Virus record (IMG/VR): IMGVR_UViG_3300033552_000012
Span: 1-52,053 of that record
Length of the DNA: 52,053 nt
Direction: 5' to 3' (one strand)
Source: a virus
Taxonomy: Duplodnaviria; Caudoviricetes
This document shows positions 2,761 to 52,053 of the stretch, piece after piece; position 1 is the stretch's first letter; each line of letters begins with the position of its first letter. The notes beneath the pieces are model-generated. The model saw only the letters and a list, made by a program, of their open reading frames with translations. It had not been told where the DNA came from and searched no databases. A program made the translations under genes and the position numbers.

Positions 2761-2762
2761 AA

Positions 2763-2953: not shown

Positions 2954-3080
2954 TAACACAGGTTTTGCCCCATTGCTTTTATTTGTACTTTTTTGGATTT
3001 ACGGTGTCGTATTTAAAGTTTAGTAATTTCTGATTTAACGGTGATTATCACCGCAACGATGGCAAAGCCTGATAACGTTA
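2954..3080 (+). repeat. attC-like hairpin site S5 (127 bp)
   Basis: TAAC-a-caggttttgcc...attgc / gcaac...ggcaaagcctg-ataac-GTTA. Confidence 0.9.
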
Positions 3081-3099
3081 TGCGTTATTTAACAGAACG

Positions 3100-3525: not shown

Positions 3526-3603
3526 TTGGTGTGTTTTTATTATTAGTGATTAATTCAATTATTCGGTTTTATTTTTCCGCCTGCACAAAGCCACGAAACG
3601 TTA
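3480..3603 (+). repeat. attC-like hairpin site S6 (124 bp)
   Basis: TAAC-a-gcggttttgagcaagcgg / ccgcctgcacaaagccac-gaaac-GTTA. Confidence 0.9.
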
Positions 3604-3616
3604 TAGCTTATGGCTA

Positions 3617-3850
3617 TTATTGGTTAATTAAGAAGTTTTCAATATCACCCAACAATGTGTCAATTTCTCCTTTTCTTTTTAGAATTTCATCGTATTCTTT
3701 TTTAGCAAGTTCATAATCTTCACTTTCTGGTTGGTCGGCATCTTCTTGCCATTGCATTGCCTCGTCATCAACTTCATCTGAATACTCTTGTCTTTTATCT
3801 TCTAAAAACTGTTTAAATTCGTTTAATGCTTCGTCTTTTGTTGTCATCAC
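3617..3850 (-). CDS. Cassette 7 acidic helical protein
   Basis: 77 aa, D/E-rich. Confidence 0.75.
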   Translation of the reverse strand: MMTTKDEALNEFKQFLEDKRQEYSDEVDDEAMQWQEDADQPESEDYELAKKEYDEILKRKGEIDTLLGDIENFLINQ

Positions 3851-3879
3851 GTTTTGTTTTAGTTACCCACCACAAGCTA

Positions 3880-4008
3880 TAACAGCAATTTGTGGTAATT
3901 TGGGTATTAGTTATTAATTTTTTTTTTGGTCTTGTATTTGTAAAATCTGTCTTGAATCGGTACTTTAGGATTTATTTATCCCAAACTACCACAAGTTGCA
4001 GGGCGTTA
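3880..4008 (+). repeat. attC-like hairpin site S7 (129 bp)
   Basis: TAAC-a-gcaatttgtggtaatttggg / cccaaactaccacaagttgc-agggc-GTTA. Confidence 0.9.
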
Positions 4009-4275
4009 TGCAACAGTTTCAGAACGTTCTCGTTTAAAAATTTCTAAAAGTTCTGAATCTGTCTTATTTGAATATTTACCGCTTGAATCAAAACGAGTGC
4101 TTAAAAACCAATTTGCAAAATCAATAGTCTGTTTATCTACTAATTCTTCTATTTTACAAATACATTCTTCGTGATTGTAAATTCTTTTTTCTAATAAACT
4201 CTTTAATTCATTTGATAAAACCGATTGCATAACAGCCGTTTTGCTCAATGTCGGTATTGTTTTATCTTTGTCCAT
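4006..4275 (-). CDS. Cassette 8 protein; starts inside the S8 loop
   Basis: 89 aa; IPTLSKTAVMQSV crosses the site; stop lies in the S7 TAAC. Confidence 0.75.
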   Translation of the reverse strand: MDKDKTIPTLSKTAVMQSVLSNELKSLLEKRIYNHEECICKIEELVDKQTIDFANWFLSTRFDSSGKYSNKTDSELLEIFKRERSETVA

Positions 4276-4357
4276 ATTGTTTTTAATTTAATTATTAGTC
4301 TATTTTTGTTATTATCCGTGTTGAATTTTCCGCCACTAAGCAAAGCAGCGAACGTTA
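4230..4357 (+). repeat. attC-like hairpin site S8 (128 bp)
   Basis: TAAC-a-gccgttttgctcaatgtcgg / ccgccactaagcaaagcagc-gaac-GTTA. Confidence 0.9.
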
Positions 4358-4603
4358 GGGAACATCTTCCTCAACTTTGTCGCCAAAAGTTTCGTTAAAA
4401 TAATCTTCTCTTTTATCGGATACCATTTTATCCCAGCTCATGGTCATAAATCCGTCGTTCCAAGTTTCTTTTAGTTGTTGTTTTTCTTTTTCTAAAAGTT
4501 TCTCCGCTTCAATTTGACAAAATCTTAAAAGTGTATTTGAAATATCACTTTCTTTTCGTTTGTCTTTAATAATTTCTATTAATTCTTGCAATGCTGTTTT
4601 CAT
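4355..4603 (-). CDS. Cassette 9 hypothetical protein (MKTALQELIE...EKEKQQ...DYFNETF type)
   Basis: 82 aa; stop lies in the S8 TAAC. Confidence 0.75.
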   Translation of the reverse strand: MKTALQELIEIIKDKRKESDISNTLLRFCQIEAEKLLEKEKQQLKETWNDGFMTMSWDKMVSDKREDYFNETFGDKVEEDVP

Positions 4604-4642
4604 AATTTTATTTTTAATTTATTAGTCAAAAAGCCGAGAATA

Positions 4643-4697
4643 TAACATATGCTTGTAAAAATGGCTTTATCGCCACTATTACAAGCGTCCACCGTTA
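4643..4697 (+). repeat. attC-like hairpin site S9 (55 bp, minimal, apparently chimeric)
   Basis: TAAC-at-atgcttgtaaaaatggc / gccactattacaagcgt-ccacc-GTTA. Confidence 0.85.
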
Positions 4698-4919
4698 TAC
4701 GTCAGCTTCTTTGGAATCGTCAGAAACATAATCTACATAAGGATATGTTTTATTTATAAAAGTTACAGTATAACTACAAGTTATACTGTTGCATTTATGT
4801 GGATATTGGGGTGGATGAGTTGTAAAACATTGTCCAGTTGGTCTTAAATAACCATCTTCACATTCAGGGCATTTAAAGTCTATTTTTACTGTTTTTACTT
4901 GTTTAATTTCTTGTGGCAT
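4695..4919 (-). CDS. Cassette 10 zinc-ribbon protein
   Basis: 74 aa; CPEC...HKC...C; stop lies in the S9 TAAC. Confidence 0.75.
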   Translation of the reverse strand: MPQEIKQVKTVKIDFKCPECEDGYLRPTGQCFTTHPPQYPHKCNSITCSYTVTFINKTYPYVDYVSDDSKEADV

Positions 4920-4966
4920 AATTTTTTATTTTTTGATTAATATTTATTTTAACAAAGCCGAACGCA

Positions 4967-5037
4967 TAACAGCAGTTTTGACTTACCGCCAAAATCTCGC
5001 TGGTACAGAGGTGGCATTTCAAGGCTGCGAAACGTTA
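4967..5037 (+). repeat. attC-like hairpin site S10 (71 bp)
   Basis: TAAC-a-gcagttttgacttaccgcc / ggtggcatttcaaggctgc-gaaac-GTTA. Confidence 0.85.
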
Positions 5038-5049
5038 GTGATAATACAC

Positions 5050-5298
5050 CTATCGCAATTGCATTTTGTTGTAAAACTCAAATTTATTATCCGTAAGACA
5101 TTCGTATTTTATGAGTTTCCATCCGTCTTTATTTGCAATTAATAACATTTCATTATCAATGTACTTCATATCTTTTTCATCCCAACTATTTGAGAATTTA
5201 CCATCATTAATATTTAGCCAGCAATAGCGAAAAGTACTATCACTAACAGCAGTCTTGAGAGATTGTGGTATCGGTGTGTTTTTGTCTATATTTTCCAT
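5050..5298 (-). CDS. Cassette 11 protein; starts inside the S11 loop
   Basis: 82 aa; IPQSLKTAVSDST crosses the site. Confidence 0.75.
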   Translation of the reverse strand: MENIDKNTPIPQSLKTAVSDSTFRYCWLNINDGKFSNSWDEKDMKYIDNEMLLIANKDGWKLIKYECLTDNKFEFYNKMQLR

Positions 5299-5372
5299 AA
5301 TTTAATTATTAATGTTTATTTGTTGTTATTTGTCTTGAATAATCCACAACCTTGCAAGGTTGCGAAACGTTA
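5244..5372 (+). repeat. attC-like hairpin site S11 (129 bp)
   Basis: TAAC-a-gcagtcttgagagattgtgg / ccacaaccttgcaaggttgc-gaaac-GTTA. Confidence 0.9.
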
Positions 5373-5384
5373 TAAGTAATACTA

Positions 5385-5534
5385 TTATCTCTTTTCCATA
5401 ATTCCATATATCTCATTGTAAGCGTAATTTTCGCTAAAATCATTCAATGCATCTACAATGTCTTCCGCATCTACTGTTATGGTGTAATAACCATATTCTG
5501 TGTGTTCATAAAACACGATAAATTCTTTTTCCAT
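5385..5534 (-). CDS. Cassette 12 small acidic protein (49 aa)
   Basis: Manual translation MEKEFIVFYEHTEYGYYTITVDAEDIVDALNDFSENYAYNEIYGIMEKR. Confidence 0.65.
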   Translation of the reverse strand: MEKEFIVFYEHTEYGYYTITVDAEDIVDALNDFSENYAYNEIYGIMEKR

Positions 5535-5559
5535 AATTACTTTTATTTTAAATTACCCA

Positions 5560-5592
5560 TTTCGAAAAACCACGCATAGTTGCGAGACGTTA
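5560..5592 (+). repeat. Degenerate terminal site S12 (right half only)
   Basis: ...gttgc-gagac-GTTA resembles the S11 end gttgc-gaaac-GTTA; no AAC arm upstream. Confidence 0.55.
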
Positions 5593-6063
5593 CTCTTTTT
5601 TGTATTTTTCAAATGCCAAAATAGCCTTTTCTTTTGCGTAATAACTAACGTTTCCGGAAAGTCTTTTCTTCTCTAATTTTTCCTTATCAGCGATATAAAA
5701 AGCCTTGAATGTATTGAAACCAAACATCGTCATTAATTCCTGGTTGCTGATATACATACTCATATCAACAGACTCTTTTTTACAGCTTAACAGCTCTTTT
5801 ATGTGTTCTAGGTTTTTAAGCGAATAATATGTGCTACTTCGGTTAAACTTTGGGGTATCGCCTAAAGTAGCAAACAGCCTTTTTAGTTTTACCGCCCCTA
5901 TATTATATTCTTCTCGCAAATAAACCGCACTGACATGATTTTCTACTTCGCTGTCTTTTATCCAACTGCCTTTTACTCTACATTGCCCTCGTTTTTCACT
6001 GTAAGGAACTGCTGTGGTGAACATCGTTATCGGGTTCAAGTTTTTCTTCCAAAATTCTACCAT
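5590..6063 (-). CDS. Hypothetical protein, possible DNA-binding
   Basis: 157 aa downstream of the exonuclease; stop lies in the S12 TAAC. Confidence 0.7.
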   Translation of the reverse strand: MVEFWKKNLNPITMFTTAVPYSEKRGQCRVKGSWIKDSEVENHVSAVYLREEYNIGAVKLKRLFATLGDTPKFNRSSTYYSLKNLEHIKELLSCKKESVDMSMYISNQELMTMFGFNTFKAFYIADKEKLEKKRLSGNVSYYAKEKAILAFEKYKKE

Positions 6064-29377: not shown

Positions 29378-31978
29378 ATGGCTAACGAAAAGTTTTATTT
29401 AGATTTTATTTCTGACGGATTCGGAAAAGTATATATAGACGAACCATTCGGTTTTAATTCTGTTTCTTTTGACCTAAACCAAAAAGAAAAAGGAATGAGT
29501 CGTGATGTGCAGTTCAACGGTGGTGAATCTCAGTTTGAGTTTACCCATATGCGTAATCACTACTTAGATAAAATATTGTATTACCATCAAAAATACGGGT
29601 TTGAGTCCAAAGTAATTCTCGGTATTGAAATTAAGGGTTTTCCTACTATATTAGGCGACTTGGATTTTGCTAAATGTATCACTGATGGAATAGAATATTT
29701 CAAGTGTAAAGTGATACAACAAAGTGATTTACAAATAATCAAGCGCAGAAAATCGGTTAAAGTTGACGTTTTCTCTGATAAGGATTTGGATGGTAATCCG
29801 ATTACCCCTCTTGTAACGGAGAATATGTTATTTAAGGCAAAGCCTGTTTTTCAAACCAGTAAATGGGAACAGTCAGGTGATTTTAATGAACGATTAGTGA
29901 GTTTTGGTATTGATTATTATTATTTTAACCCCGCCATTAACCAAACGCAATCAGAGATAGAAGACACGTTGGGTTTCTTTGAAGTTTTGGTTAAAAACAA
30001 CACTGCCGATACTTTTTCTGTTTTGAAAGCAAAAAATCCGCTTAAAAAAATACAAATAGACATCAGCGATGTTTTGATTCATTTTGATACCGATGTAGCG
30101 AATGGAGGAAACGGATATGCTGAACTTAGCCTTGTGATTAAAAAAGGAAAAGAATTTGCTACAGCAGAAAAAACAACTTTATTTTCAGCTATTAGATATG
30201 AAAACGAAAGCTATGATTTTAGCGGTGGATTCCTACAGACCATAGAAAGCGTAGACAGAGGCGAGAGCGTGTGGGTATATTTTGAATTAAAAGTTCGGGA
30301 AAGCACTACATTAGGAACTGGTTTTGAACGTTTTGAGTGCCGTATTTCATTGGCTAATATCAAGATGAAGATCACAGCAGAAAGCACCGCCTACAATTCG
30401 ATTGTTCCTTCTTTTCGATTAGTAGATGTGATGCGACAAGTAATCAAATCCATATCCGGTAACGCTATTTCCGCACCCCGTTTCGATGTTGCAGGGCAGT
30501 TTTATGACAACCGTTTATTTAACGGTAATTTCCTCCGAAATGTACTCACGGTTAATGACAACGGAGTGACTAAGACCAAACCATTCCTTATTTCGTTAGA
30601 GGACATCGAGCAATCTATGGTAGAGATGAAAGGGGATTATGAGGTAAATGACCCTGTATTTTTCGGAATCGAGAAAGACTACTATACCAATATCGAAAGC
30701 GGTTTTTTTGACGATACGCAGTTTAGTAAAATGAACAAGGTTTTCAATGATGAGTACTGTGTTATTTCGATGAAATACGGCTATAAGAATTACCAGGCAT
30801 TAAAAGAGATTTCAGAACCCAACTCGGCTGATGTAGTGCATGGCATGGCAGATATGCTCTTGGCGAACAAAATGGTGGAGAACAAAAAAGAGGTTGTAGT
30901 GGAATGGAATCGAGATTCGTTCTTAGGCGAATCGAGCCGTAGAAAAGGTTTTGAGATTGCGTCGAACACTTCAGCTCAGGAAGATGACAGTTTGTTTTGT
31001 TGGGATACCGTAAAGACCGTTGGTGACCAATCTTTTGAGGAAGTATCGGAGTTTAAGCACGAATATAATGCAGCCACTAGTAAATTATCACTCAGGATAT
31101 TAGATGTTAACCTTATTATTTTAGGGATAGAAGTGGGTACTCCTTTGGTGATATATAATGATTTGAACCAAGGCAGCTATATCGTATTTAGTATTACGCC
31201 AAATGAATTGATGCTGACGAAAACAACCGGTACAATCAGTGCGTCAAATGACGGGGTGCGGGTGACAAAATACGCCTACACTTTATTAGAGTCTAAAATA
31301 CCATTTACGAATTACACGAACCAGGGATTCACCGAGATATCGAACTTGAATGGGAAAGACAGTTATAGTAACTTACGGTATTCGGTAAAAAGAAACGTCG
31401 AAAATTACTACAACAGTTATTTAGCTACTTGTAACCTTTACCATAAAGAAAAAGCAATTACCGTTACCGATTACAAAAACAATGGGCTGTGTTCTACTAC
31501 TTATTTAGGAAAAAAAATCGTGGAGAACGCTCCGTTTGTACCTAGCAACCCAATACTTAGCCCGATGCTGTTTAATGATGTGGTATTTGCCAATGTGGAA
31601 TTTGCGGATTTCATTGCCTTACAGAATAATATCCGAAGCCAAAGAGGGTATATCCGAAGCATCGACAATACTGGAAACGTGATAAAATTGTACCCAAAGA
31701 AAATGAGTTATGAGAATCTAAGCAAGGAACTGACTATTGTGGGTGAAGAAAAATTTGAACCTATCGGAATCACTATCGTTAAAAAAGACGGACTTATCGA
31801 AATTAATTCAGAGACAATTCTTACAAAATTAATTTACAAAATAACAGGAGAAATGCTGTATTTATACGACCTCAACAACTACCGATTGTACAATTCAGTC
31901 TATATAAACAAAGTAAGTATCAATGGGTCACTGTATGAGACCGAAAAACAATTGGACGATTCGTTAAAATTATTATAA
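29378..31978 (+). CDS. Tail tip/hub structural protein
   Basis: 866 aa directly after the tape measure. Confidence 0.65.
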   Translation: MANEKFYLDFISDGFGKVYIDEPFGFNSVSFDLNQKEKGMSRDVQFNGGESQFEFTHMRNHYLDKILYYHQKYGFESKVILGIEIKGFPTILGDLDFAKCITDGIEYFKCKVIQQSDLQIIKRRKSVKVDVFSDKDLDGNPITPLVTENMLFKAKPVFQTSKWEQSGDFNERLVSFGIDYYYFNPAINQTQSEIEDTLGFFEVLVKNNTADTFSVLKAKNPLKKIQIDISDVLIHFDTDVANGGNGYAELSLVIKKGKEFATAEKTTLFSAIRYENESYDFSGGFLQTIESVDRGESVWVYFELKVRESTTLGTGFERFECRISLANIKMKITAESTAYNSIVPSFRLVDVMRQVIKSISGNAISAPRFDVAGQFYDNRLFNGNFLRNVLTVNDNGVTKTKPFLISLEDIEQSMVEMKGDYEVNDPVFFGIEKDYYTNIESGFFDDTQFSKMNKVFNDEYCVISMKYGYKNYQALKEISEPNSADVVHGMADMLLANKMVENKKEVVVEWNRDSFLGESSRRKGFEIASNTSAQEDDSLFCWDTVKTVGDQSFEEVSEFKHEYNAATSKLSLRILDVNLIILGIEVGTPLVIYNDLNQGSYIVFSITPNELMLTKTTGTISASNDGVRVTKYAYTLLESKIPFTNYTNQGFTEISNLNGKDSYSNLRYSVKRNVENYYNSYLATCNLYHKEKAITVTDYKNNGLCSTTYLGKKIVENAPFVPSNPILSPMLFNDVVFANVEFADFIALQNNIRSQRGYIRSIDNTGNVIKLYPKKMSYENLSKELTIVGEEKFEPIGITIVKKDGLIEINSETILTKLIYKITGEMLYLYDLNNYRLYNSVYINKVSINGSLYETEKQLDDSLKLL

Positions 31979-37657: not shown

Positions 37658-39168
37658 ACTTAGTAACACGGCAGATTTACGGACTAAAAAAAATAAGCTC
37701 ACCCAACACCTTTATAGGCGGGGTTTCTCCAACTATTGGAACGGCTCAATTGTTAGCTACTGCCTTGGCTATTAACGTAAGTATGATTACAAATTTCTCA
37801 GTTGTAGGGAGTGATATTAAATGCCGTATTACGGGCAGTTATGTGATTCCTGGGAATTGTTTTTTAAACAGTACCTCTATTACTTCTTTTATAGATAAAG
37901 ATAATTTAGTTACTAATATTGGTGAAAGTTCTTTCCGTAATACAACACTTATTTCAGAGCTTAATTTTGAGGGAGTCATTACTCACTCAGCACCCTTTTC
38001 TAATCGAAACTCTAACGTAAAGAGAGTAATATTAAAAAATTGCACCGCTATCACCGCAGGTACTTTTTATACGGACTCCTCTATAATGGAGTTTTATTAC
38101 ATCGCAAGGGCAACAACTCTTGGAAACACAGTTGGGGACGAAGGTATTTTTTATAATGCAAGCACCTATCCTGCTACGATTATCTATACCAACCCTTTTT
38201 TACAGACGAATAATGCGGGGAGTGAAGATGGAGATATTGCTTATGCACGTTCTAAAGGTTGTGTTATAAGGTATGTAACAAGCTTCACTGCTCCAAATCC
38301 AGTGACTACATTAACAACGGGAACGATTTATAACACGGCAATACAGTTGAATTTCACCCCGCCAAGCAGTGCCAATGCCATTGATTATTATGAATGTTAT
38401 GCTAATGGTGTTTTTTACAAAATAGGTGCAAGCGGAGATTACGTGACAAAATTAACAGCTTCAACTTCTTATGTTTTTACGATTTATGCAAGAGATATTT
38501 TTTATAATTTATCTTTAGTTTCAAATTCAATTACTCAATCGACAAATACAACTAATCCATCAGTTCCTACAACGGGTTTAGTTTCTTACTTCAAATTTGA
38601 TTCAAACTCAAACGACAGCTACGGTTTAAATAATGGGGTTGATACCTCCGTTACTTATGGTGTTGGAAAAATAGGAAACGCAGTGGTCTACAACGGTAGC
38701 ACGTCTAAAACCGTTATCGGAAATCCAGCTAATTTACAATTATCACAAGGTACTGTTTGTGCGTGGATAAAGACAAGCGGTGCGGGGAGTAGTTATAGAT
38801 GTATATTTTCAAAAGAAAATGCGTATGCCTTATTTTTAGTTGATGGGGTATTAATGTTTTACAACTGGGGGACTTTCGGGGCTGTTGGAAATAAATCGAC
38901 AGGAATAAACCTAAACGATGGCTTATGGCATCACGTAGCGTTAGTTTTTGAAAACGGAACGGCAAACAATTACATTTATATTGACGGGGTTTTGAAATTG
39001 ACTTTTTCAATGGGGGTCTTAAATCAGACCTCCCCATTTCAAATAGGGCAAAATTCAGGAACGCAATTTATAAACGCAACAATTGACGAAATGCCTATTT
39101 ATAGCACGAAATTAAAGCAGTTCCAAATAGATTTGATTTACAACGCAGGTACAGGAACAACATTATAA
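37654..39168 (+). CDS. Multi-domain adhesin/receptor-binding-like protein (LRR-like, FN3, LamG/concanavalin-like)
   Basis: VTNIGESSFRN, FN3-type LNFTPP...YVFTIYARD, LamG-type NDGLWHHVALV...IYIDG. Confidence 0.75.
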   Translation: MNLVTRQIYGLKKISSPNTFIGGVSPTIGTAQLLATALAINVSMITNFSVVGSDIKCRITGSYVIPGNCFLNSTSITSFIDKDNLVTNIGESSFRNTTLISELNFEGVITHSAPFSNRNSNVKRVILKNCTAITAGTFYTDSSIMEFYYIARATTLGNTVGDEGIFYNASTYPATIIYTNPFLQTNNAGSEDGDIAYARSKGCVIRYVTSFTAPNPVTTLTTGTIYNTAIQLNFTPPSSANAIDYYECYANGVFYKIGASGDYVTKLTASTSYVFTIYARDIFYNLSLVSNSITQSTNTTNPSVPTTGLVSYFKFDSNSNDSYGLNNGVDTSVTYGVGKIGNAVVYNGSTSKTVIGNPANLQLSQGTVCAWIKTSGAGSSYRCIFSKENAYALFLVDGVLMFYNWGTFGAVGNKSTGINLNDGLWHHVALVFENGTANNYIYIDGVLKLTFSMGVLNQTSPFQIGQNSGTQFINATIDEMPIYSTKLKQFQIDLIYNAGTGTTL

Positions 39169-39236
39169 TGAAAACTTTAACAATAGCAACACTAATAGCA
39201 ATAATAATAGTAACAATTTTAATTTATATTTTATGA
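39168..39236 (+). CDS. 22-aa hydrophobic micro-ORF
   Basis: MKTLTIATLIAIIIVTILIYIL; TAATG overlap upstream, ATGA overlap downstream. Confidence 0.5.
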   Translation: MKTLTIATLIAIIIVTILIYIL

Positions 39237-39460
39237 CAAAATTTTCAACAAAGGCAATCGTTTTAGAAACTCCAAGATGGGCTAAAATAATGTTTAGGAT
39301 TGTATTTCTAATCACCACCGCTTTGACTTTGTTTATTATGGGGACTACCTTGATGGAAGAAAATGCAAAGTATGAATTAATGCTTGCCGTTAAGTCTTTA
39401 GATGTTTTGATTTATGGAATTAGTAAAATGTTTGGTATTGAGAAAGAAGAAATAGCCTGA
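39233..39460 (+). CDS. Putative holin
   Basis: 75 aa, two hydrophobic segments, lysis region. Confidence 0.55.
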   Translation: MTKFSTKAIVLETPRWAKIMFRIVFLITTALTLFIMGTTLMEENAKYELMLAVKSLDVLIYGISKMFGIEKEEIA

Positions 39461-44212: not shown

Positions 44213-45409
44213 ATGAGTAAATGGAGAATCTATGACGATGTCATTAAAACTATATTGCTGAATAATGAGGAATTATCAGACTGGAAGGTTTCTCAGATTG
44301 TCCTTAAAGCAGAAAGACCAACAACAGAATCAGACTTACTTCGGACTTATATCAAAAGGAATCGAAAAAGGCTATTAGATAAATTTGAAGGCAATTACAC
44401 CGCTACAGACGCGCTCGACATCGACAATACCACGGTAAAACACATGTGGGTAAAGAATAAAGAAGCTTCTTTATTTGTCAAAAACCCAAATTTTATTCCT
44501 CAGACAGAATCTGAAACCGACAACTTCAAGACTTTAAGCGATGCTTTAATTTATGACTTGAAGAACTACTCCCCCATTTTTAAAAAAATAGAATATGTAG
44601 AAAGTACTGATTCCTATTTATTAGTAGTTGACCCCGCAGATGTTCATGTAGGTAAATTATGTAGTGATTTTGAAGTTGGACAATCTTACAATAATCAAAT
44701 AGCGGTACAAAGAGCATTAGAAGGGGTTCGTGGATTATTGCAAAAAGCAAAAGGGTTTCATATAGACCAAATACTCTTTATAGGAGGAAACGATATTTTA
44801 CATATTGACAGCCCTGCCAGAAAAACAGCAAATGGAACACCACAAGACACGGACGGTATGTGGCACTCTAATTTTCTGATAGCCAAACAACTTTATGTTG
44901 ATATTTTAGAAATCCTTCTTGCCGTGGCTCCGGTTCATTTTGATTTTAATCCAAGCAATCACGACTATACCAACGGTTTCTTTTTATCTCAGGTTATAGA
45001 GGCTTATTTTAGACATTGCAAAGAACTTACTTTCAATACTTCAATCGCTCACCGAAAATACTACAAATACCATAAAAATCTTATCGGAACTACCCACGGA
45101 GACGGTGCAAAAATGACTGACTTACCGATGCTTATGGCTACTGATAAACCTGTTGAATGGGCTGAAACAACACACCGATATGTTTATGTACATCATTTAC
45201 ACCACAAATGGAGTAAAGATATTTTTAGTGTTTGTGTAGAGGGATTAAGAAGTCCAAGCGGTACGGATTCCTGGCATCACCAAAAAGGATTTGAACACGC
45301 ACCGAAAGCGGTTGAAGGATTTTTGCACAGTAAAAATAACGGACAAATCGCCCGTTTAACCCATATTTTTAGCTTATTATTCATTGTTTTTTCGTATATT
45401 ACAGTATGA
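44213..45409 (+). CDS. Calcineurin-like metallophosphoesterase
   Basis: DVHVG, GNDILH, SNHD, HGD, HHLHH metal-binding motifs. Confidence 0.8.
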   Translation: MSKWRIYDDVIKTILLNNEELSDWKVSQIVLKAERPTTESDLLRTYIKRNRKRLLDKFEGNYTATDALDIDNTTVKHMWVKNKEASLFVKNPNFIPQTESETDNFKTLSDALIYDLKNYSPIFKKIEYVESTDSYLLVVDPADVHVGKLCSDFEVGQSYNNQIAVQRALEGVRGLLQKAKGFHIDQILFIGGNDILHIDSPARKTANGTPQDTDGMWHSNFLIAKQLYVDILEILLAVAPVHFDFNPSNHDYTNGFFLSQVIEAYFRHCKELTFNTSIAHRKYYKYHKNLIGTTHGDGAKMTDLPMLMATDKPVEWAETTHRYVYVHHLHHKWSKDIFSVCVEGLRSPSGTDSWHHQKGFEHAPKAVEGFLHSKNNGQIARLTHIFSLLFIVFSYITV

Positions 45410-46044
45410 TAGGAATATATAAAATTACAAATCCAAACGGAAGAGTTTACATAGGGCAAAGTATCAATATAGAAAGACGTTTTGATTCTTATTCAAGATG
45501 TGATTGCAAAGGACAAACCAAAATATACAACTCGATAAAGAAACATGGGTTTTTAAAGCATAAGGTAGAAGTTCTTGTTTATTGTGATATATCTGAATTA
45601 AATGAAAAAGAGGCTTATTATATAGAATTATATAATTCAAATAGCAGTTCTGATTTAAATTGCGGAGTTCCTAGATATTTAAATAAATCAGGATATTTAT
45701 CAGAAGAGACAAAAGCTAAAATGACATTAGCACAAACAGGCAATAAAAAATGGCTAGGTAAAAAACATAAAGAATCTACTAAGATTAAAATGTCAATAGC
45801 TCAGATGGGAAAAAAAGTAAGTAAAGAAACTTGTCTTAAAATATCTGAATCTAAAAAAGGTATTAATCCAAAGCATTTTGTAGAAATTCATCCAAACGCT
45901 AAAATAGTTTTAAATTTATCAAATGGAGTTTTTTATAAAAGTTTAAAAGAAGCTTCTTTAGATTATAATATTAATTACAATACATTAAAAAGTTATCTAA
46001 GTGGTAACATAAAAAAAAATAAAAGTGATTTAATTTACGCGTAA
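45406..46044 (+). CDS. GIY-YIG homing endonuclease with NUMOD3-like repeats
   Basis: GIYKITN..GRVYIGQS; repeated SEETKAKM/KESTKIKMS/SKETCLKIS. Confidence 0.9.
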   Translation: MIGIYKITNPNGRVYIGQSINIERRFDSYSRCDCKGQTKIYNSIKKHGFLKHKVEVLVYCDISELNEKEAYYIELYNSNSSSDLNCGVPRYLNKSGYLSEETKAKMTLAQTGNKKWLGKKHKESTKIKMSIAQMGKKVSKETCLKISESKKGINPKHFVEIHPNAKIVLNLSNGVFYKSLKEASLDYNINYNTLKSYLSGNIKKNKSDLIYA

Positions 46045-46337
46045 TTGCATCCGTTTATTTTTTAGTCACAAATTGTGTGTTAATTTGTGACAAAATAAAA
46101 ATGTAAAATTCATATATTAACAAACAAAAATAACTTAGCTATGACTTTAGAAGAAGAATTGCAGAAGAATTATACAAAAAGAGAACGGTTGTACAACAAA
46201 GGTTGCAATGATGAGAAGTTGAACGATAAAATACGGGAATTGCAAAAATTAATACGTGACCGCTAATACCTACTTAAAATAATCGCCAATTAAGTTTGGC
46301 GAGGCGAATACCGAAGCATTGTTTGGGGATTTCTAAC

Positions 46338-46377
46338 AAAAAAAGCCCCGAACTCCCTAATAAAAGGGGTCGGGGCT
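46338..46377 (-). terminator. Intrinsic terminator at the convergence of the two gene blocks
   Basis: AGCCCCGA...TCGGGGCT hairpin with a T-run on the - strand. Confidence 0.7.
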
Positions 46378-46542
46378 ATGGGTTTATTTTTGAATAATAA
46401 CGATTTCAGCGTCAATAACTTTTATATCGTGCAGGGCAAAAAATGCGTTCTGCAACTTGAATTGTCGTTTTTGGTGTTTTCTGTGCTTGGATTTATCTAA
46501 TCCTTTAATGTAGGCTTTTTGCTCCGGATTTAATTTCATATT

Positions 46543-46731
46543 TTATTCTTTAAAGGTTATGTTTTGTATGAATTCCTCGGATAATTCGACAGGAACGGTA
46601 CTGATGTCAATTTGGTAGCCAATGGCTAGTTTTTTATAGGATATTTGGGGATTTGATTTTAACCAAACACCTACTTTTTTGTAATGCTCTTTCTTAGCTT
46701 CCGATGGTTTGTAAACTCCTAATGACTTCAT
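46543..46731 (-). CDS. Hypothetical protein
   Basis: 62 aa. Confidence 0.6.
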   Translation of the reverse strand: MKSLGVYKPSEAKKEHYKKVGVWLKSNPQISYKKLAIGYQIDISTVPVELSEEFIQNITFKE

Positions 46732-46988
46732 ATTGTGTTAATTAATCGTTCATAAAAAGTAGCAGGACATTCATACTCGCTACACGGTGCGGGTTTTCCA
46801 AAGTTGTTGTCAAATATATAATGTTCAATGTGACTGAAATTATTTTCATCTTTGGGAAAATGTATGTGCAACAAGGCTAGAATCCCTCGGATGTGTTTGT
46901 GGGTTTTGTTATCCTCCACTAAAACCAGTAAGAACTCGATATAGTGAAGGTATTGAACAAACTTTTCTTTTTCTATCATTAATCGCAC
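46728..46988 (-). CDS. Hypothetical protein
   Basis: 86 aa. Confidence 0.6.
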   Translation of the reverse strand: MRLMIEKEKFVQYLHYIEFLLVLVEDNKTHKHIRGILALLHIHFPKDENNFSHIEHYIFDNNFGKPAPCSEYECPATFYERLINTI

Positions 46989-47173
46989 CTTTCGTTTAAT
47001 TCACCGAGCTTAAATTGATATTCTGCGTGAAGTTTAAGAACCGCAGCAGTATTGCCTCCTGAACGAAAGATAGCGTCTTGGTATTTCTTGGTTAACTCGG
47101 TAATTTCCTCATCGCAGTTCTTGTCGCAGGACAAAATAAAAAATAAAACGGGTAATAACAATAATTTTTTCAT
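46979..47173 (-). CDS. Small lipoprotein
   Basis: MKKLLLLPVLFFILS-C lipoprotein signal. Confidence 0.65.
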   Translation of the reverse strand: MKKLLLLPVLFFILSCDKNCDEEITELTKKYQDAIFRSGGNTAAVLKLHAEYQFKLGELNERCD

Positions 47174-47193
47174 AATAAATATATTTAGGTTAA

Positions 47194-47826
47194 TTAATAA
47201 ATTCCTATTTGATGATTAAATTGTTTTCGTAGATCGAGTCTTTCGGGGGCGTTGTATATCCGGTCTTGCAGTTGCAACCACTTTACAATTCCGTTAGCGA
47301 TACTTATTTTTTCTTGATATTCATCTTTAGCCATTTTAAGCAACGGATATTTCGCAACGATGTCAAACTTTACATATTCCCAATAATCCTTGCTGTATCG
47401 CTTTATTAGCCCTAGATCGTATTGCTGTATATTACCTCCTTTGGCACAATTGCAATTATAATCTTGCAGGTGCAAATTATCTAGATTGAACCGGATGGAA
47501 GGATTTGATTTTACAGTATGAAAATGTCCTGCTTGTGGCGTAGTGTTTCCGTTACAGGAAATACAACCCGATTTTAGGTCGATAAGACAGCAAATCTTAT
47601 TAATTGGTTTTTCAAGGTCTTTTTGCCAATCAGTGAGTGTTTTTAACTTGTCCTTAATAAGGACTTTTTCTTTGTTCCAATCCTGTTTTACTTTCTTTTC
47701 CTTATCGACTTTTTGCTTGGCTACAACTCCCATGGAATAGGAAACTTTGCATTCAATTTTATCACAATGTTTTTGCAAAAAATATTTGGGTTCAAACTTA
47801 TCAGAACATATTTTACACCTCGGCAT
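47194..47826 (-). CDS. ninG: NinG/Rap-like recombination endonuclease
   Basis: N-terminal CxxC...C....C, CISC...QAGHF...RFNLDNLHLQ...CN. Confidence 0.8.
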   Translation of the reverse strand: MPRCKICSDKFEPKYFLQKHCDKIECKVSYSMGVVAKQKVDKEKKVKQDWNKEKVLIKDKLKTLTDWQKDLEKPINKICCLIDLKSGCISCNGNTTPQAGHFHTVKSNPSIRFNLDNLHLQDYNCNCAKGGNIQQYDLGLIKRYSKDYWEYVKFDIVAKYPLLKMAKDEYQEKISIANGIVKWLQLQDRIYNAPERLDLRKQFNHQIGIY

Positions 47827-47830
47827 AGGC

Positions 47831-48274
47831 TTAGTTTTTTATGAAGGTTCCATCAACTGTTTTTCCTTTTCGGTCTTTTATCTCGTTCCAGGCTAAATTA
47901 GCACATTCTAACAGGTTGTATCCTAATTTATCACAAATATCTGACAAATACGAAATACTAAAATAATAATTATTCCCTTGTAAAATATATCCAAATAAAA
48001 CATGGTATTCTAATGCGCCACTATTTACGAAAACACTTTTGTCATCGATAGCTATATCTTCTTTTAACTGCTCGGCTAAAATAATTAACACCACGAAAAT
48101 ATCCCCTAATCCGTCCTTTATTTCATCGGGTTTATTCTTTAGTATTGCTCCGGAAGTTTCGCCTATTTCCTCTAAAAGTTTTAATCGTTGCTTGGGTGCG
48201 TTTTCTAAGTTTAGTAAATTCTTTTCATCCGCCCATGCTAAAATTAGGGATTGTAACTCTTGTAATGTTTTCAT
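47831..48274 (-). CDS. MazG-like nucleotide pyrophosphohydrolase
   Basis: WADEKNL...QRLKLLEEIGE...IKDGLGD...AWNEIKDRKG; ATG 48274 preferred. Confidence 0.8.
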   Translation of the reverse strand: MKTLQELQSLILAWADEKNLLNLENAPKQRLKLLEEIGETSGAILKNKPDEIKDGLGDIFVVLIILAEQLKEDIAIDDKSVFVNSGALEYHVLFGYILQGNNYYFSISYLSDICDKLGYNLLECANLAWNEIKDRKGKTVDGTFIKN

Positions 48275-48352
48275 TTTTGGTTTGGTTTTAAAATTTAATT
48301 GTAATTCTGTGGTATTCAATTGTTTGCATAATTTAGTAGCGACAGTTAGATA

Positions 48353-48771
48353 GTTGTAGGTAAGTTTGCCCAACTTTGTAGCCAAAGTTACGCTCACAGT
48401 TTTTTTACGTCTGATTGTAGTCTTTCAAAATAATCGATTCTTGAACCAGCATAGCCATCTTGGTTATCAAATTCTTTAAGTTCAATTATTGTTTTATGGA
48501 TGTGAATTAAAACACATTGTCTAGCAGTATCAAAACACATAGGGTATTTATGTAATCCATCAATCGGGTGCATAAATTCTAAAATTAATGCTCTTGCTTC
48601 TATTTCGGTATCTCTCATAATTCGTGATTTAAAAAACCTACCTACAACAATATATTGTAGCAATTAAGGCTTTGGTTATTAATTTATTTATTGGGTATGT
48701 ACTTGTTTTAATTAGGGCGAATTCGCCACAATTAGAATTCTTAGCCTTAACTGCAACAATAATGAACGTTA
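48353..48771. mobile_element. Solo gene cassette of the same family as the 752-5592 array
   Basis: Arms GTTGTAGGTAAGTTT (48353) / AAACCTACCTACAAC (48634-48648) and a 127-bp hairpin at 48645-48771. Confidence 0.8.
48394..48618 (-). CDS. Solo-cassette hypothetical protein
   Basis: MRDTEIEARALILEF...ARQCVLIHI...YFERLQSDVKKL (74 aa). Confidence 0.7.
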   Translation of the reverse strand: MRDTEIEARALILEFMHPIDGLHKYPMCFDTARQCVLIHIHKTIIELKEFDNQDGYAGSRIDYFERLQSDVKKL

Positions 48772-48772
48772 G

Positions 48773-49486
48773 TTAAAATTTATAATCTCCTTTTATCTGT
48801 AGTCTTTTTTCTTTAAGCAATTGAATGTATTCTTTTTTTATAGGATCGTGACTCCATTCTGTAATTAGTTTCTCTAAGGCAACCCTGTCAATTCCATTCG
48901 TTATCTTATCGATGTAGATGACTACTTTTTCCCTTTGAATGTTTTTTTCTTTCCGGAGCTTCCGTAATTCGTAAAAGCTCGTAGCGTTCTCTAGCGTGTC
49001 GATTTTCTTTTTAGAGAGTAAATGTTCGTTTTCTCTAAATTCAGCCTTTAGATTCAAATAATCGGGTATCCACTTATGGAAAACGGTCTGAGAATCGAGT
49101 TTAAAATCTTTTCCGTCGCCAATTTTGCCTTGACGAGCCAATTTAAACATCAAAACCACATCCTCTAAAGTTTCGTAACTGAATACTTCAATCAAGTCAA
49201 ACGCCATTACTATTGCTTGCTCCTCGGTGAATTTTTTACCCACGTTAAAGTTATCAGAAAGTCTAGTAGTCAAGAATACTAAGGCTTTAACTGTGTTTTT
49301 TTGGTCAATTAATTTAGTGAGTTTGCGAAGTGATGTTCCCTCTGATGCCGAAGCTAACGTCAGCTCGTTTTCAAGATAGGCTAATTCCCCTTCGTTTTTT
49401 CTAACTAAAATACTTATCAACTTTTGCGTTAATACTTTCCCAACGCTCATCGATTGGCTTTGGCTGATTATTATTTCCGTTTCCAT
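48773..49486 (-). CDS. Replication-module protein of unknown function
   Basis: 237 aa overlapping the initiator 3' end; helicase-loader position. Confidence 0.6.
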   Translation of the reverse strand: METEIIISQSQSMSVGKVLTQKLISILVRKNEGELAYLENELTLASASEGTSLRKLTKLIDQKNTVKALVFLTTRLSDNFNVGKKFTEEQAIVMAFDLIEVFSYETLEDVVLMFKLARQGKIGDGKDFKLDSQTVFHKWIPDYLNLKAEFRENEHLLSKKKIDTLENATSFYELRKLRKEKNIQREKVVIYIDKITNGIDRVALEKLITEWSHDPIKKEYIQLLKEKRLQIKGDYKF

Positions 49487-50273
49487 TTGTGTTGTTTTTA
49501 TTTAGGTTATCTATCCAAACGTGTTTGAAGCCCGACCAACTGTTTTTAACGCATTCTGCGAGCATTTCGTTGTAATTACATTCCTTACTCTCAATTTCAG
49601 AAATAAATGCCTTAAAAGCCGTCTCTGTGTTTGATGCTTTTTTGTTTTTACGAACCGTCAACCAATCATCGGTTAGATTTTGTTCAAATCCGTAATCTAA
49701 AAGACTTTTCCTGAAATTGAATTTTTTGTTTTCGGGCGAAGCCCCAATACATACTTCTTTTGTTTTATCTTCTATTATTTCATTTACTTTACTATACTCT
49801 ACTTTACTTTGTGTATTATTGGGGTTGTTTTGAGCACTGAAACTAAGTTTAGGGGTACTTTTTAAGGGTTTCCGTACCCCTAAACCCTCTAATAGTTGGA
49901 GTAATGAATTTCGGTCAATGCATTTATTTTTTCTTTTTAAGTATGCATCTTGAATACTGTCTATAAAATCTTGACACCAAATAATCCTATTTTCATCCCA
50001 TAATTGCAGGTCGAATTTATCTAAGTCAACTAAGTCATTTATTATTAAAATTAAGGTTTCTTTTGAAACTTTACATTTAGCACTTAAAAACATGATTGTT
50101 GTGTTTTTAGAAAGGTCTAAATAATGATTGTCGGTTCTAGCTAACTCTTGAAGTAATTTTATAAAAGTAGCATAACCATCATTTCCGTAAGTTTCCTCAA
50201 TATAGTACATTTTTTTCCCTTGTTCACAATCTAACGGGAAGTAGGTTACGGTGTTTTTTTGAGGTCTTGCCAT
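49401..50273 (-). CDS. Replication initiator-like protein (DUF4373/Lin1244 N-terminal domain)
   Basis: MARPQK..V.YFPLD...IEETYGNDGYA; TQSKVEYSKV linker; C-terminal WLTVRK...NSWSGF. Confidence 0.75.
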   Translation of the reverse strand: MARPQKNTVTYFPLDCEQGKKMYYIEETYGNDGYATFIKLLQELARTDNHYLDLSKNTTIMFLSAKCKVSKETLILIINDLVDLDKFDLQLWDENRIIWCQDFIDSIQDAYLKRKNKCIDRNSLLQLLEGLGVRKPLKSTPKLSFSAQNNPNNTQSKVEYSKVNEIIEDKTKEVCIGASPENKKFNFRKSLLDYGFEQNLTDDWLTVRKNKKASNTETAFKAFISEIESKECNYNEMLAECVKNSWSGFKHVWIDNLNKNNTNGNGNNNQPKPIDERWESINAKVDKYFS

Positions 50274-50464
50274 TATCGTACGCTTTTAAGTTTAGCCTGG
50301 ATAGTCAGTAAAACTCCGATAAGGTCGAAAAGGTTTTCTTTAGACAAAGAAATGTCGCAAGTTCCTGTGGTAGGGTTTGAGGTTTGAAAAGTGATTAGGT
50401 GCTTTTCTTGAAAAACTTGCAATAGGTAGTTTGGGTCGGTAACATCAGTAAATTTTAAAATCAT
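50273..50464 (-). CDS. Hypothetical protein
   Basis: 63 aa, coupled to the initiator. Confidence 0.6.
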   Translation of the reverse strand: MILKFTDVTDPNYLLQVFQEKHLITFQTSNPTTGTCDISLSKENLFDLIGVLLTIQAKLKSVR

Positions 50465-50530
50465 AGGTTAAGGTATTTAGTTAAAAAGTAAAATTTCAAT
50501 AAGTAGGCGATAAAATGTATATAAGTTTAG

Positions 50531-51169
50531 TTATTTAATTTTTGATTGTTTTATTTCTATTCCTTTTAATTTAGAATCATGTCTTATTATTTTATAACAT
50601 TTATTAATAAAATCTTTAATATCTAAAGATCCTTTCATTTGGTTGCATGTTTTGCATGACGAAGTAATATTTACGGGAGTGTTTAAACCCCCTTTTGATA
50701 TTGGTATTAGGTGCTCTAAATGCCATATTTTACTACTGATAGGTTCCGAACAATAGTAACATCTAAAAGAACTTCTTTTTAAACAATTCAAAACATCATC
50801 AGATGTTATTGTTTCGATATAATTAACTCTTCTATTATTTGAGTTTGCTTTTTCGCTGCATTTATATTTAAACATATTAATAACGTCTAATTCTTCATCT
50901 TTAGAAACGTACCTTATTTTTATATTTTTAATAGGAATTCTATCATTTTCAATTTTAAATGATGTTTTATAAATAGGCGTTTTTAAGTCAACAAAGTATT
51001 CAATCATTAATAAAACTAAATTTAATTTTAAATCTTCTATTTTAACTCTAGGAACTCCGCTAATTATTTTTAATGGAATAATTTCTTCTTTAAGTCCAGA
51101 AGTTCTAAAACAATACCCTTCTGATGAAATGAAATAACGTGATGTGTTTTTTAGCTGTTTAACCATCAA
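50531..51169 (-). CDS. HNH endonuclease
   Basis: CYYC...HLEHLIPISKGGLNTPVNITSSCKTCNQMK. Confidence 0.88.
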   Translation of the reverse strand: MMVKQLKNTSRYFISSEGYCFRTSGLKEEIIPLKIISGVPRVKIEDLKLNLVLLMIEYFVDLKTPIYKTSFKIENDRIPIKNIKIRYVSKDEELDVINMFKYKCSEKANSNNRRVNYIETITSDDVLNCLKRSSFRCYYCSEPISSKIWHLEHLIPISKGGLNTPVNITSSCKTCNQMKGSLDIKDFINKCYKIIRHDSKLKGIEIKQSKIK

Positions 51170-51364
51170 ATAAAGTGTTAAATAAAATAAGCCCTCAATT
51201 TCCCCGATGCAGCAGGTACTTTTGAAGGCTATTTAATAATGTCTTGTAAATATAGTGAAACCTGCATGAATAACTATTCTGTAAAATTAACAATTTTAGT
51301 AATATAATAACATACTAATTCTTATTAATTATAAAATAATTGTAAGTTGTTGTTTGTTAATAAG

Positions 51365-51895
51365 TTAAGAATGCTTCTTAATGATTCTGGAGCATGTGGC
51401 TATTATAGTTTCTTTATCGAGGTTGTAGGCACAAATAATTTGGGATAGAATTACTTTTGCAGGAACTCTAAAAGTAGCAATATTGCGGATAAGGTGTTCA
51501 AATTCCTTGATTATTTCGTTTGTTTCATTGATTTCTCTATCGCCTTTGTTTCCGTTATCATAAACGACCTTAAAATCTTTTTCAATAGGTTTGGAAAGTG
51601 TTTTCTTGACCACTGAAATAGCGGTTTTTATAGGAGTCAAATTACCATAATAATTTTTATCCATTTGGTCGATATTTTCTAAAATCATTTGACTAAGAAT
51701 AATATGCTCTAAAACCAATAACAATTCATCTTCGTATTCTAAATCTAAAATCTTTCTATGAGTCGGTGTTATTTCTAAAAACTCCTCGTCTCCTATAAAA
51801 ATAATTCCGTTTTTAAGTATAGCTCTTTTTGTTTTTACGAGGAACATTATTAATCCTTTCTCTTTTTCAATATCGTGTACTTCTTCGGTTGTCAT
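51365..51895 (-). CDS. Hypothetical protein
   Basis: 176 aa. Confidence 0.7.
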   Translation of the reverse strand: MTTEEVHDIEKEKGLIMFLVKTKRAILKNGIIFIGDEEFLEITPTHRKILDLEYEDELLLVLEHIILSQMILENIDQMDKNYYGNLTPIKTAISVVKKTLSKPIEKDFKVVYDNGNKGDREINETNEIIKEFEHLIRNIATFRVPAKVILSQIICAYNLDKETIIATCSRIIKKHS

Positions 51896-51909
51896 AATTT
51901 TATTTGTTA

Positions 51910-52053
51910 TTTAATGGCTCTATTTCATTTGTGAATTTATGACCTTGCTCTTGAAGGTATAATTCTAAAACTATAATTGATTTTTTTATATCGCTTATAA
52001 ATTCTCCTTTTTTTTCTGCTCTTTCTACACGTTTTACAATTTCAAAAAGATAG
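51910..52053. repeat. Terminal direct repeat, copy 2
   Basis: Matches 1..144 with 2 mismatches. Confidence 0.95.

Follow-up and report, generated by a model that had tools for sequence, protein, structure and literature searches.

Introduction

Integron cassettes are joined at recombination sites (attC) that fold into imperfect hairpins of ~55-140 nucleotides (nt), closed by boxes of the form ...AAC/GTT.... Each cassette opens on the last two letters of one GTT and extends through the first letter of the GTT after it, and its start is complementary to the box before its own hairpin. Isolated cassettes (SALINs) are attributed, in the accessible part of the work of Loot et al. (10.1101/2022.09.11.507474), to insertion at secondary genomic sites (attG) with the target consensus GWT. 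Here we describe an element of this kind in a virus of the Caudoviricetes, IMG/VR record IMGVR_UViG_3300033552_000012. The window referred to below is the entire record of 52,053 bases. The element, a solo unit made of one long hairpin and a gene for a protein of 74 amino acids (aa), lies among replication genes, apart from the main array of similar units in the same genome. It is probably a mobile cassette of an integron-like system of Bacteroidota and their phages, excised from an array and then placed, by a Xer/IntI-like recombinase acting in trans, at a secondary GTT that follows a stop codon.

How far does the likeness to integron cassettes extend? The anatomy and the junction logic are the same, in a variant kind. 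The solo hairpin is an imperfect one closed by AAC/GTT boxes, with a length of 126 nt that falls within the attC range; the unit runs from TT to G; and its start is complementary to the box before its own hairpin. Units of this family occur in head-to-tail arrays and also singly, far from an integrase, as integron cassettes and SALINs are described to do in the sources available, and the secondary target appears to be little more than GTT, as in the accessible account of attG. With one site, one gene and no recombinase, and with the next hairpin of its family ~4 kb away, the unit resembles a SALIN, which holds if its site counts as an attC. Finally, in six phage records a recombinase gene lies near an array of this family, at the array's "left" end and on the opposite strand, the place that intI takes relative to attC polarity.

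There are also several differences from integrons. First, pairing continues for ~15 base pairs (bp) beyond the boxes and includes a fixed A/C mismatch at position 11. Second, the internal loop has 1 nt on one side and 5 nt on the other, and no canonical extrahelical bases are evident. Third, open reading frames (ORFs) lie antisense to the polarity of the site, and some array ORFs begin in the hairpin loop. Fourth, the linked enzyme is a Xer-like protein of 265-275 aa that scores under the integron-integrase cut-off. Fifth, neither an attI site nor a Pc promoter was identified. Sixth, the range covers Bacteroidota and phages. Literature searches found no description of such a Xer-linked variant.

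Clusters of attC sites without an integrase (CALINs) have been reported in virulent phages, including Polaribacter phage P12002L, as far as the available text of Qi et al. 2023 (PMC9892861) shows. According to the same text, two sites are given for P12002L and treated as classical attC sites, and IntI1 recombined one of them. P12002L is, by that account, a recombinase-less phage with attC-type sites, and in this it resembles the phage studied here. The main text of that report, so far as accessible, mentions no Xer-like enzyme, extended arms or solo units, and the terms "SALIN" and "single attC" do not appear in it.

Anatomy of the solo unit

The solo unit spans 48354-48768, from the TT of the left GTT through the G of the right GTT. 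Its parts follow one another in the order TT-arm, small hairpin, ORF (antisense to site polarity), 5' untranslated stretch, arm-AAC, hairpin core and G (Table 1). A complete unit is obtained only with the plus strand as the "top" strand of the site, and the gene is then antisense. That a solo cassette is present, with its borders at the two GTTs, is confirmed. The breakpoints fit GTT, and they leave the exact phosphodiester bond of the G^TT crossover ambiguous in the sequence.

The two 15-nt arms of the unit are complementary at 14 of 15 positions, and the sole unmatched position is 11, where an A (48363) stands opposite a C. A repeat search extends this inverted repeat to 21 nt at 86%. The long hairpin begins with CAAC (48645-48648) and ends with GTT (48768-48770), its length being counted so as to include both the C of CAAC and the final T, and the same kind of search places its stem arms at 48653-48684 and 48730-48761 (32 nt, 75%). 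Beside the AAC/GTT stem, the loop reads AATAT on one side and AATGAAC on the other. An attC site has a second box pair (L''/L') with an unpaired central spacer, and extrahelical bases that determine the choice of strand; here there is a second stem with a spacer, but one of 1 nt versus 5 nt as mentioned above, and in place of bulged bases the irregularities consist of fixed mismatches or wobbles. On manual reading, the letters of the strict format RYYYAAC/GTTRRRY are found only in part.

The 74-aa protein is confidently predicted to form a three-helix bundle (predicted local distance difference test score, pLDDT, 88.9). It has no match in Pfam or PHROG, a Foldseek search of the PDB gave no match at E <= 0.001, and the protein atlas places it with viral hypothetical clusters only.

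Membership of the main array's family

Is the solo hairpin related to those of the main array? A covariance model (R1) was made from eight main-array hairpins, with the solo hairpin excluded; its structure comprises 18 pairs drawn from the alignment of these eight. Four AAC/GTT pairs are invariant among the array hairpins, while 11 of the 14 inner pairs vary on both sides. In the alignment, 86.8% of cells are paired, versus 67.4% in shuffles, and none of 500 shuffles reached the observed values. All eight hairpins have an unpaired A/C at columns 28/123 and a T/G at columns 19/133. The model recognises the solo hairpin at 48637-48779 on the plus strand, the strand of the array sites, with 46.4 bits and an E value of 5.3e-9 (whole window, filters off; the default filters miss it). 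The other matches in the window are the eight training sites and two weaker array sites, 4635-4705 and 1014-1160, with no others at E < 1. In the solo hairpin, both the inner A/C mismatch and the asymmetry of the loop are retained, with A-T in place of the T/G of the array. On sequence grounds, the solo hairpin and its gene are a member of the main array's family.

An Rfam search of the window at gathering thresholds, in a collection that does not include the curated attC model of IntegronFinder, gave no matches. Two other approaches were abandoned: a scanner for AAC/GTT stems was unspecific (29 sites, versus 9-17 in shuffles), and a constrained-folding search for partners returned wrong partners for most sites.

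The arms provide a second hallmark. Within 48200-48900 there is one 14/15 inverted repeat, versus a mean of 0.05 over 60 dinucleotide shuffles (3/60 had one). For the model matches in the window and in the arrays of three phage contigs (L175, L212 and L203), the 15 nt after each GTT were compared with the reverse complement of the 15 nt ending at the next AAC. Adjacent arm pairs (n=42) agree on average at 8.98 of the 12 positions beyond GTT, and 22 of them agree at 10 or more; for non-adjacent pairs (n=2458), the mean is 4.61 of 12 and only six reach 10. Of 50 GTT arms, 49 have an A at position 11 and 38 have a C as the partner of that position; the A/C mismatch occurs in 32 of 42 cassettes of the four arrays. 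On the gene strand it reads as a G/T wobble. The arms of the solo unit carry this family signature. Where arms are otherwise cassette-specific, a fixed irregularity is a sign of selection for a folded state that brings the two together, to judge from these patterns of agreement. The arms could meet because the unit is circularised, in which case they lengthen the core hairpin, or because one strand folds across the gene.

These results bear out what an earlier note on this DNA had described: a cassette of the array's family outside the array, the arm match with its mismatch at position 11, and a long hairpin with an inner A/C. The note had also held that only AAC/GTT is invariant, and indeed both CAAC and GTTG occur in another array too. 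It had pointed to the gene end at the right GTT, where 2 nt separate this GTT from the stop codon of the 237-aa gene; at the right end of the main array, GTTA (5589-5592) overlaps the stop of ORF 5590-6063. Its distance of ~4 kb from the array around the circle is likewise correct, hairpin 1014-1160 being the next of the family.

The same site in other phages

A comparison by blastn of the solo region with all fetched loci led to L178, a 37.5-kb phage record (96% complete) with three consecutive R1 matches, in which the solo-like unit is the third of the array. The homology sets in at the left GTT, with its G, and continues as far as the GTTA on the right (48768-48771). It includes an identical left arm, the small hairpin, a near-identical 5' untranslated stretch, and an AAC arm and left core half that are near-identical as well; the right half of the core is similar. 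The left GTT is preceded in L178 by the end of another hairpin (...GCAAAC|GTTGTAGG) and in the window by the upstream region of MazG. The alignment means that unit 48354-48768 exists elsewhere as an internal unit of an array. The gene differs: the L178 ORF encodes 73 aa and is unrelated to the 74-aa protein (no alignment at E <= 100).

The small hairpin behind the stop codon (48368-48393 in the window, ~13051-13078 in L178) has changed on both sides together, AACTTTG/CAAAGTT in one and GGCTTTG/CAAAGCC in the other, and no run of T follows it.

Sedentary chromosomal integron arrays offer a parallel to L178. In such arrays, near-identical sites surround unrelated genes, as with the Vibrio repeats. 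Similarly, the window and L178 have arms, untranslated parts and core in common and differ in the gene. The present case differs in that the conserved site reaches the start and stop codons, and cores and arm-gene blocks exchange separately.

The closest IMG/VR relative of the 74-aa protein, with 51% identity, is encoded by L008. Immediately upstream of this homologue there is an R1 hairpin (57.1 bits), and the GTTA at its end overlaps the stop of a 165-aa gene, which is not a relative of the 237-aa gene in the window (E 0.18). On the downstream side the homologue is followed by a 301-aa gene instead of MazG. The window and L008 are 83% identical over 106 nt, from the TAAC of the hairpin through its loop and the first ~35 codons, and the arms differ. 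A metagenome scan (43 loci) contained no near-identical copy of the 74-aa protein, with none above 55% identity over more than 44 residues. Among relatives of the 237-aa protein (5 loci, 50-61% identity), none lies beside MazG or has a hairpin at the gene end. The best relative of the MazG protein has 66% identity, and in the eight loci scanned for it R1 found nothing better than E 0.29.

Spread of the family and the linked recombinase

The family was followed with an 18-letter motif from the right hairpin arm, which matched 39 IMG/VR contigs, a number near chance by a rough estimate. With R1, 35 of the 39 loci contain sites, 180 in all (E <= 0.1), in arrays of up to ~18. In species-representative genomes, the motif occurs at more than 120 loci. 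Thirty bacterial loci were scanned with R1: 24 of the 25 from Bacteroidota contain a total of 86 sites, often 8-10 per 8 kb, and the five from other phyla contain none. The genera with sites are Flavobacterium, Pedobacter, Chryseobacterium and Sphingobacterium. Dense bacterial arrays (up to at least 10 sites per 8 kb, on a chromosome or prophage) are found in Flavobacterium qiangtangense (L301/L325), F. sedimenticola (L303), F. silvisoli (L369 and L338), L335 and Pedobacter agri (L321).

Which enzyme might act on these sites? Seven of nine PF00589 proteins encoded by array-bearing phage records are 265-275 aa long, combine PF13495 with PF00589 and are Xer/IntI-like. By computed positions, six of the seven lie 350-1900 nt from an array, at its "left" end and in each case on the strand that runs against the hairpin polarity. 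Homologues of the recombinase (37-43% identity) occur in 3 of 80 bacterial loci; in two of these, L328 and L369, the gene stands beside an R1-confirmed array on the same strand as the hairpins, and the third, L360, was outside the R1 scan. As judged from these gene positions, the arrays are associated with a Xer/IntI-like recombinase.

The sites of P12002L (L051) may belong to the same family. A hairpin at 30007-30057, between methyltransferase genes, has the form CTAAC-A-stem...stem-AGCC-GTTAG, with the 1-vs-4/5-nt asymmetry that the family also shows; it may or may not be one of the published attC1/attC2 sites. A longer AAC...GTT hairpin lies at 39114-39253, between two small genes. The R1 scores on the P12002L sites are weak, 18.4 bits for the longer hairpin and 12.6 bits. 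Both hairpins are probably distant members of the same site family.

Proposed mechanism

How might the solo unit have reached its place? We infer movement by way of a circular intermediate. The excised circle would join both arms, with the hairpin core-G linked at the circular junction to TTGTAGGTAAG... (TTGTAGG...), and this would lengthen the hairpin by a ~15-bp stem with the fixed A/C mismatch (G/T on the gene strand). Folded as single-stranded DNA, in whichever strand is used, the element of arm and core would serve as the recombination site, in the way that attC does in integrons. The strand exchange at G^TT would then fall to a short tyrosine recombinase of the Xer/IntI-like type, which a co-infecting phage or a host array would provide in trans. 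The direction would be from array to solo: the cassette would leave an array and enter a secondary GTT behind the stop codon of the 237-aa gene, the counterpart of the attC x attG insertion that yields a SALIN. Co-oriented with the operon and placed between genes, the cassette would be transcribed by read-through and would cause no disruption.

Observations that weigh against this course

Several observations count against such an insertion. First, the folding energy of the solo hairpin is not significant (z = -1.49 on the plus strand and -1.38 on the minus strand, with 13 and 17 of 200 shuffles as stable), so its significance rests on family membership.

Second, the phage encodes no tyrosine (PF00589, TIGR02249), serine or Y1 recombinase. 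PF00589 is found in 9 of 36 array-bearing phage records; among the 15 that are at least 90% complete, 4 have it and 11 do not. The seven Xer/IntI-like enzymes also score below the integron thresholds: their best NCBIfam match, XerA/integron integrase NF040815, gives 173-207 bits with a cut-off of 220, and the integron-integrase model TIGR02249 gives 140-165 bits in two stretches with a cut-off of 265.

Third, the empty site that the earlier note had predicted, with the left flank ...GATAG joined to TTAGTTAAAA..., gave no matches as a 22-nt pattern in IMG/VR and is not among metagenome contigs. These were Logan contigs of four runs, one from the likely source sample (X1) and three from other samples (X2-X4), which indicate the presence of sequences, not their abundance; those of X3 and X4 cover 46500-50500 only in parts. 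Neither an empty site nor a close relative was found, and insertion at the solo site was not seen but is what we infer. The alternative occupants that the note had expected between MazG and the 237-aa gene fared better. Loose ends before 48353 occur in 2, 2, 2 and 3 contigs of X1-X4, where the foreign sequence ends in ...GAAC or ...AAAC like the 3' ends of hairpins; these contigs need not hold the 74-aa gene. In X2, three contigs carry the MazG-side flank to 48355 and then differ, with an arm-like continuation (GTT ACCACTAAGTC...) whose mutual agreement is only 0.59. One X3 contig departs after 48773. Joints from 48391/48393 to 48615-48629 (X1, X2 and X4) and loose ends at 48393, 48615 and 48690 fit a unit of the L178 type, with the same site and another ORF. 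Hence other sequence does break in at the left GTT, but the search produced no empty junction and the collections hold no close enough relative.

One X2 contig joins 47829 to 48324, skipping MazG and 49 nt upstream of it, with the left end of the skip not at a GTT; MazG is therefore variable among relatives.

Fourth, exchange is not confined to one crossover point, as L178, L008 and L175 indicate. The array block 1139-1489 matches L175 at 91.5% over 352 nt, beginning exactly at CGTTAC and stopping ~7 nt short of the AAC; the cores to either side of it are unrelated. By these alignments, the units are mosaics, with the same site and another ORF in L178 and the same ORF and other arms in L008. 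Exchange therefore also takes place on the AAC side and at ORF borders, and a single G^TT crossover does not account for all of it. Moreover, when loci with homologues of the 74-aa gene were scanned with R1, filters off (n=26; 11 of 43 IMG/VR and 15 of 43 metagenome loci), only L008 had a clear hairpin, L019 having a weak one (21.5 bits). With so few homologues beside a hairpin, the 74-aa gene is best seen as an ordinary small phage gene that is only sometimes cassette-borne.

Fifth, the junction occupied in L008 is a general hot spot, and hairpin cassettes are one kind of occupant. There are 73 IMG/VR relatives of the 301-aa gene of L008, and 41 of them have a full-length match to the upstream 165-aa gene. 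The gap between the two genes is <=30 nt in 20 of the 41 loci, which have no insert there, 31-200 nt in 3 and >200 nt in 18. The closest four (L224, which is L008, and L225, L226 and L227) are 96-100% identical in the 301-aa protein and share the flanks '...AATTATAAG TAA|C' on the left and '|(A/G)GTNGTATA...' on the right. Between these flanks they have unrelated inserts of 471, 632, 417 and 964 nt, each ending in TAAC or TAAT. In L227 (44.7 bits) and in the more distant L296 (51.8 bits), family hairpins abut the same stop codon, and L296 has the full cassette anatomy, with an ORF starting inside the hairpin loop. This series of occupied and empty junctions is in favour of the cassette reading. 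Against it, R1 matches in the junction were found in only 4 of the 15 insert-bearing loci searched (L224/L008, L227, L296 and L286); the L226 insert has no hairpin and that of L225, by manual sequence reading, only a degenerate one. The alternative inserts include genes for a 143-aa protein with an NPPY-type methyltransferase motif (L225, ~1990-2420) and for a 272-aa protein (L227, ~1610-2430). In 3 of 16 other arrays, the last detected hairpin overlaps a stop codon, a figure that is uninformative, the true array ends being not known.

Where does this leave the earlier idea that cassettes insert independently at GTT sites near gene ends? It is partly supported. Both borders of the solo unit fall at GTT, as the L178 homology and the contig breaks at 48353-48355 indicate, and the preference for gene ends recurs in the L008 lineage. 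The unit is no fixed package, however: as L178 and L008 show, gene and site do not travel as one unchanging unit.

Alternative explanations

What else could have produced the solo unit? One alternative, which we consider unlikely, is general or illegitimate recombination at conserved regulatory stem-loops. No dedicated enzyme would be needed; the hairpins would be primarily transcription or RNA elements, and their mobility a by-product of similarity. The precedent is the PeSLs of T4-type phages, promoter-terminator stem-loops that, in the accessible parts of two reports (PMC2839356, PMC4122927), are regarded as mobile regulatory cassettes, with shuffling by recombination proposed. As described there, small accessory phage genes are flanked by conserved stem-loops that mark the borders of insertion, deletion and replacement, much as in the window. 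The differences from those accounts are that the present units have fixed GTT/AAC borders, cassette-specific complementary arms and a linked tyrosine recombinase, and show no sigma-70 promoter or terminator signal.

Such shuffling would fit the position of the hairpins, which belong to the 5' leaders of genes with a common orientation and would be included in their transcripts, and the conserved arm "mismatches," all of which are G/U-compatible on the gene strand. It would also fit the mosaic units, with their extra breakpoints at ORF borders and near AAC, and the fact that most array-bearing phages lack a recombinase. However, the solo hairpin is one-sided: its left border is a bare GTT, where there is nothing homologous to recombine with. 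Nor does homologous recombination explain why complementary arms specific to each cassette should abut GTT and AAC. A sigma-70-type scan of 47700-49600, which does not cover Bacteroidota-type promoters, found no signal above chance, with 7 promoter-like sites versus 6.8 expected and 0 terminators. The Xer/IntI-like recombinase beside six arrays, always in the same polarity, likewise speaks against shuffling of this kind.

A rather improbable alternative is that the solo unit did not arrive as an independent single insertion, and that it is all that remains of a second array once present between MazG and the 237-aa gene, or was vertically inherited. The empty site is not known, the X2 flank that continues with a family-like arm suggests that the place may hold varying content, and the L008-lineage junction holds from one to several genes, all of which would suit a remnant. 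Yet nothing is missing from the unit, which has the core and the two arms and is flanked by GTT left and right; its left flank is an ordinary MazG upstream region. The flanks also contain no degenerate hairpin: with filters off, the next-best R1 score in 46000-52053 is 9.2 bits, and inspection of the intergenic regions revealed none.

Elements of the IS200/IS605 group (insertion sequences) move as single-stranded DNA by means of a Y1 transposase and insert beside a short target word. It is very improbable that the solo unit is a non-autonomous transposon of this type, as subterminal hairpins and insertion beside the short word TAAC/GTTA might suggest, given that no Y1 transposase was found in the phage or seen linked to the arrays, that the head-to-tail arrays with a shared junction are unlike such transposons, and that the enzyme beside the arrays is a tyrosine recombinase of the Xer/IntI type.

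Functional implications

What would follow if the solo unit is a cassette moved by a trans-acting recombinase? First, phages without a recombinase would not be dead ends for cassette traffic. Second, single cassettes would be able to settle outside arrays, at gene ends in essential modules, where they are harmless to the phage. Third, an abundant family of sites joins the accessory genes of phages to the arrays of their hosts, which bears on how Bacteroidota phages acquire and swap small genes. The solo unit is also a clean substrate provided by nature: it has a single site and a single gene, its two junctions are defined and its empty site is predicted.

A broader proposal is put forward more tentatively, and we give it somewhat less than an even chance. 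The family may be a second kind of integron, so far undescribed and common to Bacteroidota and their phages, with a long folded site (a 15-bp arm stem containing the fixed A/C (G/T) irregularity, plus a core closed by AAC/GTT) and a minimal Xer-like recombinase without the IntI-specific domain. Its cassettes would move among the chromosomal arrays of hosts, those of phages, and secondary GTTs that follow stop codons. If so, the solo unit would be a caught example of a move to a secondary GTT site. Furthermore, since the same site is welded to unrelated ORFs at their start and stop codons in the window and L178, the system may show the genesis of cassettes, an open question for integrons.

Genomic context and other features of the record

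The window has a CheckV completeness of 100%. Its ends share ~47 codons of one minus-strand ORF (window 1-150 and 51900-52053); with this repeat at both ends, the assembly closes into a circle, and the record is, as its ends indicate, a closed circular assembly or one with a short terminal repeat. Weak blastn matches of the window are to phages of Polaribacter and Flavobacterium, and the phage collection contains no close relative. P12002L is a distant one, with 71.6% identity over ~200 nt of a replication gene. The surroundings of the solo unit form a minus-strand replication and recombination module, whose genes are listed with the parts of the unit in Table 1.

Table 1. Parts of the solo unit, neighbouring genes and the main array, in window coordinates
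Feature	Coordinates	Strand	Remarks
Left GTT	48353-48355	plus	proposed crossover G 48353 ^ T 48354; L178 homology begins at this G
GTT arm GTTGTAGGTAAGTTT	48353-48367	plus	A at position 11 (48363); identical arm in L178
Small hairpin just behind the stop of the 74-aa gene (gene strand)	48368-48393	plus	aligns with L178
74-aa cargo ORF	48394-48618	minus	invariant YPMCFDTA..C; predicted three-helix bundle
5' untranslated stretch, AAC arm to start codon	48619-48633	minus	near-identical in L178
AAC arm AAACCTACCTACAAC	48634-48648	plus	complementary to GTT arm at 14/15
Hairpin core, attC-like imperfect stem-loop	48649-48767	plus	R1 46.4 bits over 48637-48779; 78.5% identity to L178 13302-13460, left half near-identical
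Right GTT	48768-48770	plus	proposed crossover G 48768 ^ T 48769; L178 homology stops at GTTA; one X3 contig departs after 48773
NinG	47194-47826	minus	
MazG-type nucleotide pyrophosphohydrolase, downstream flanking gene	47831-48274	minus	Pfam PF03819, E 2.7e-8
237-aa flanking gene, upstream of cassette, without family match	48773-49486	minus	stop TTA 48773-48775, 2 nt from right GTT
Lin1244_N-type replication gene	49401-50273	minus	
HNH gene	50531-51169	minus	
Main array, same family	752-5592	plus (sites), genes on minus	GTT sites 1149, 1595, 2015, 2310, 3077, 3600, 4005, 4354, 4694, 5034, 5369, 5589; 752 probable

The window also encodes homing-endonuclease-like proteins, one of the GIY-YIG/NUMOD3 type (45406-46044) and the HNH type listed in the table (50531-51169), and these represent a second kind of mobile gene in the same genome.

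In the main array, four minus-strand ORFs (1162-1530, 3100-3525, 4006-4275 and 5050-5298) have their starts in the loop of the hairpin upstream of them and continue through the GTT/AAC box. Their products have similar N-termini (...IPxLSKTAV...), and the 129-aa ORF of L296 (~2033-2420) behaves likewise (...QCVQTAVSK). The reading frame over the box varies, ORF 1162-1530 being off by one base; because the frame is not constant, some of these loop starts may be artefacts. An identical stretch of 27 nt (ending ...GAATATAACATATG) occurs at 1004-1030 and 4624-4650. Array hairpins 1014-1160 and 4635-4705 each have this stretch as their left side; the two score low with R1 and have arms that mismatch those of their neighbours.

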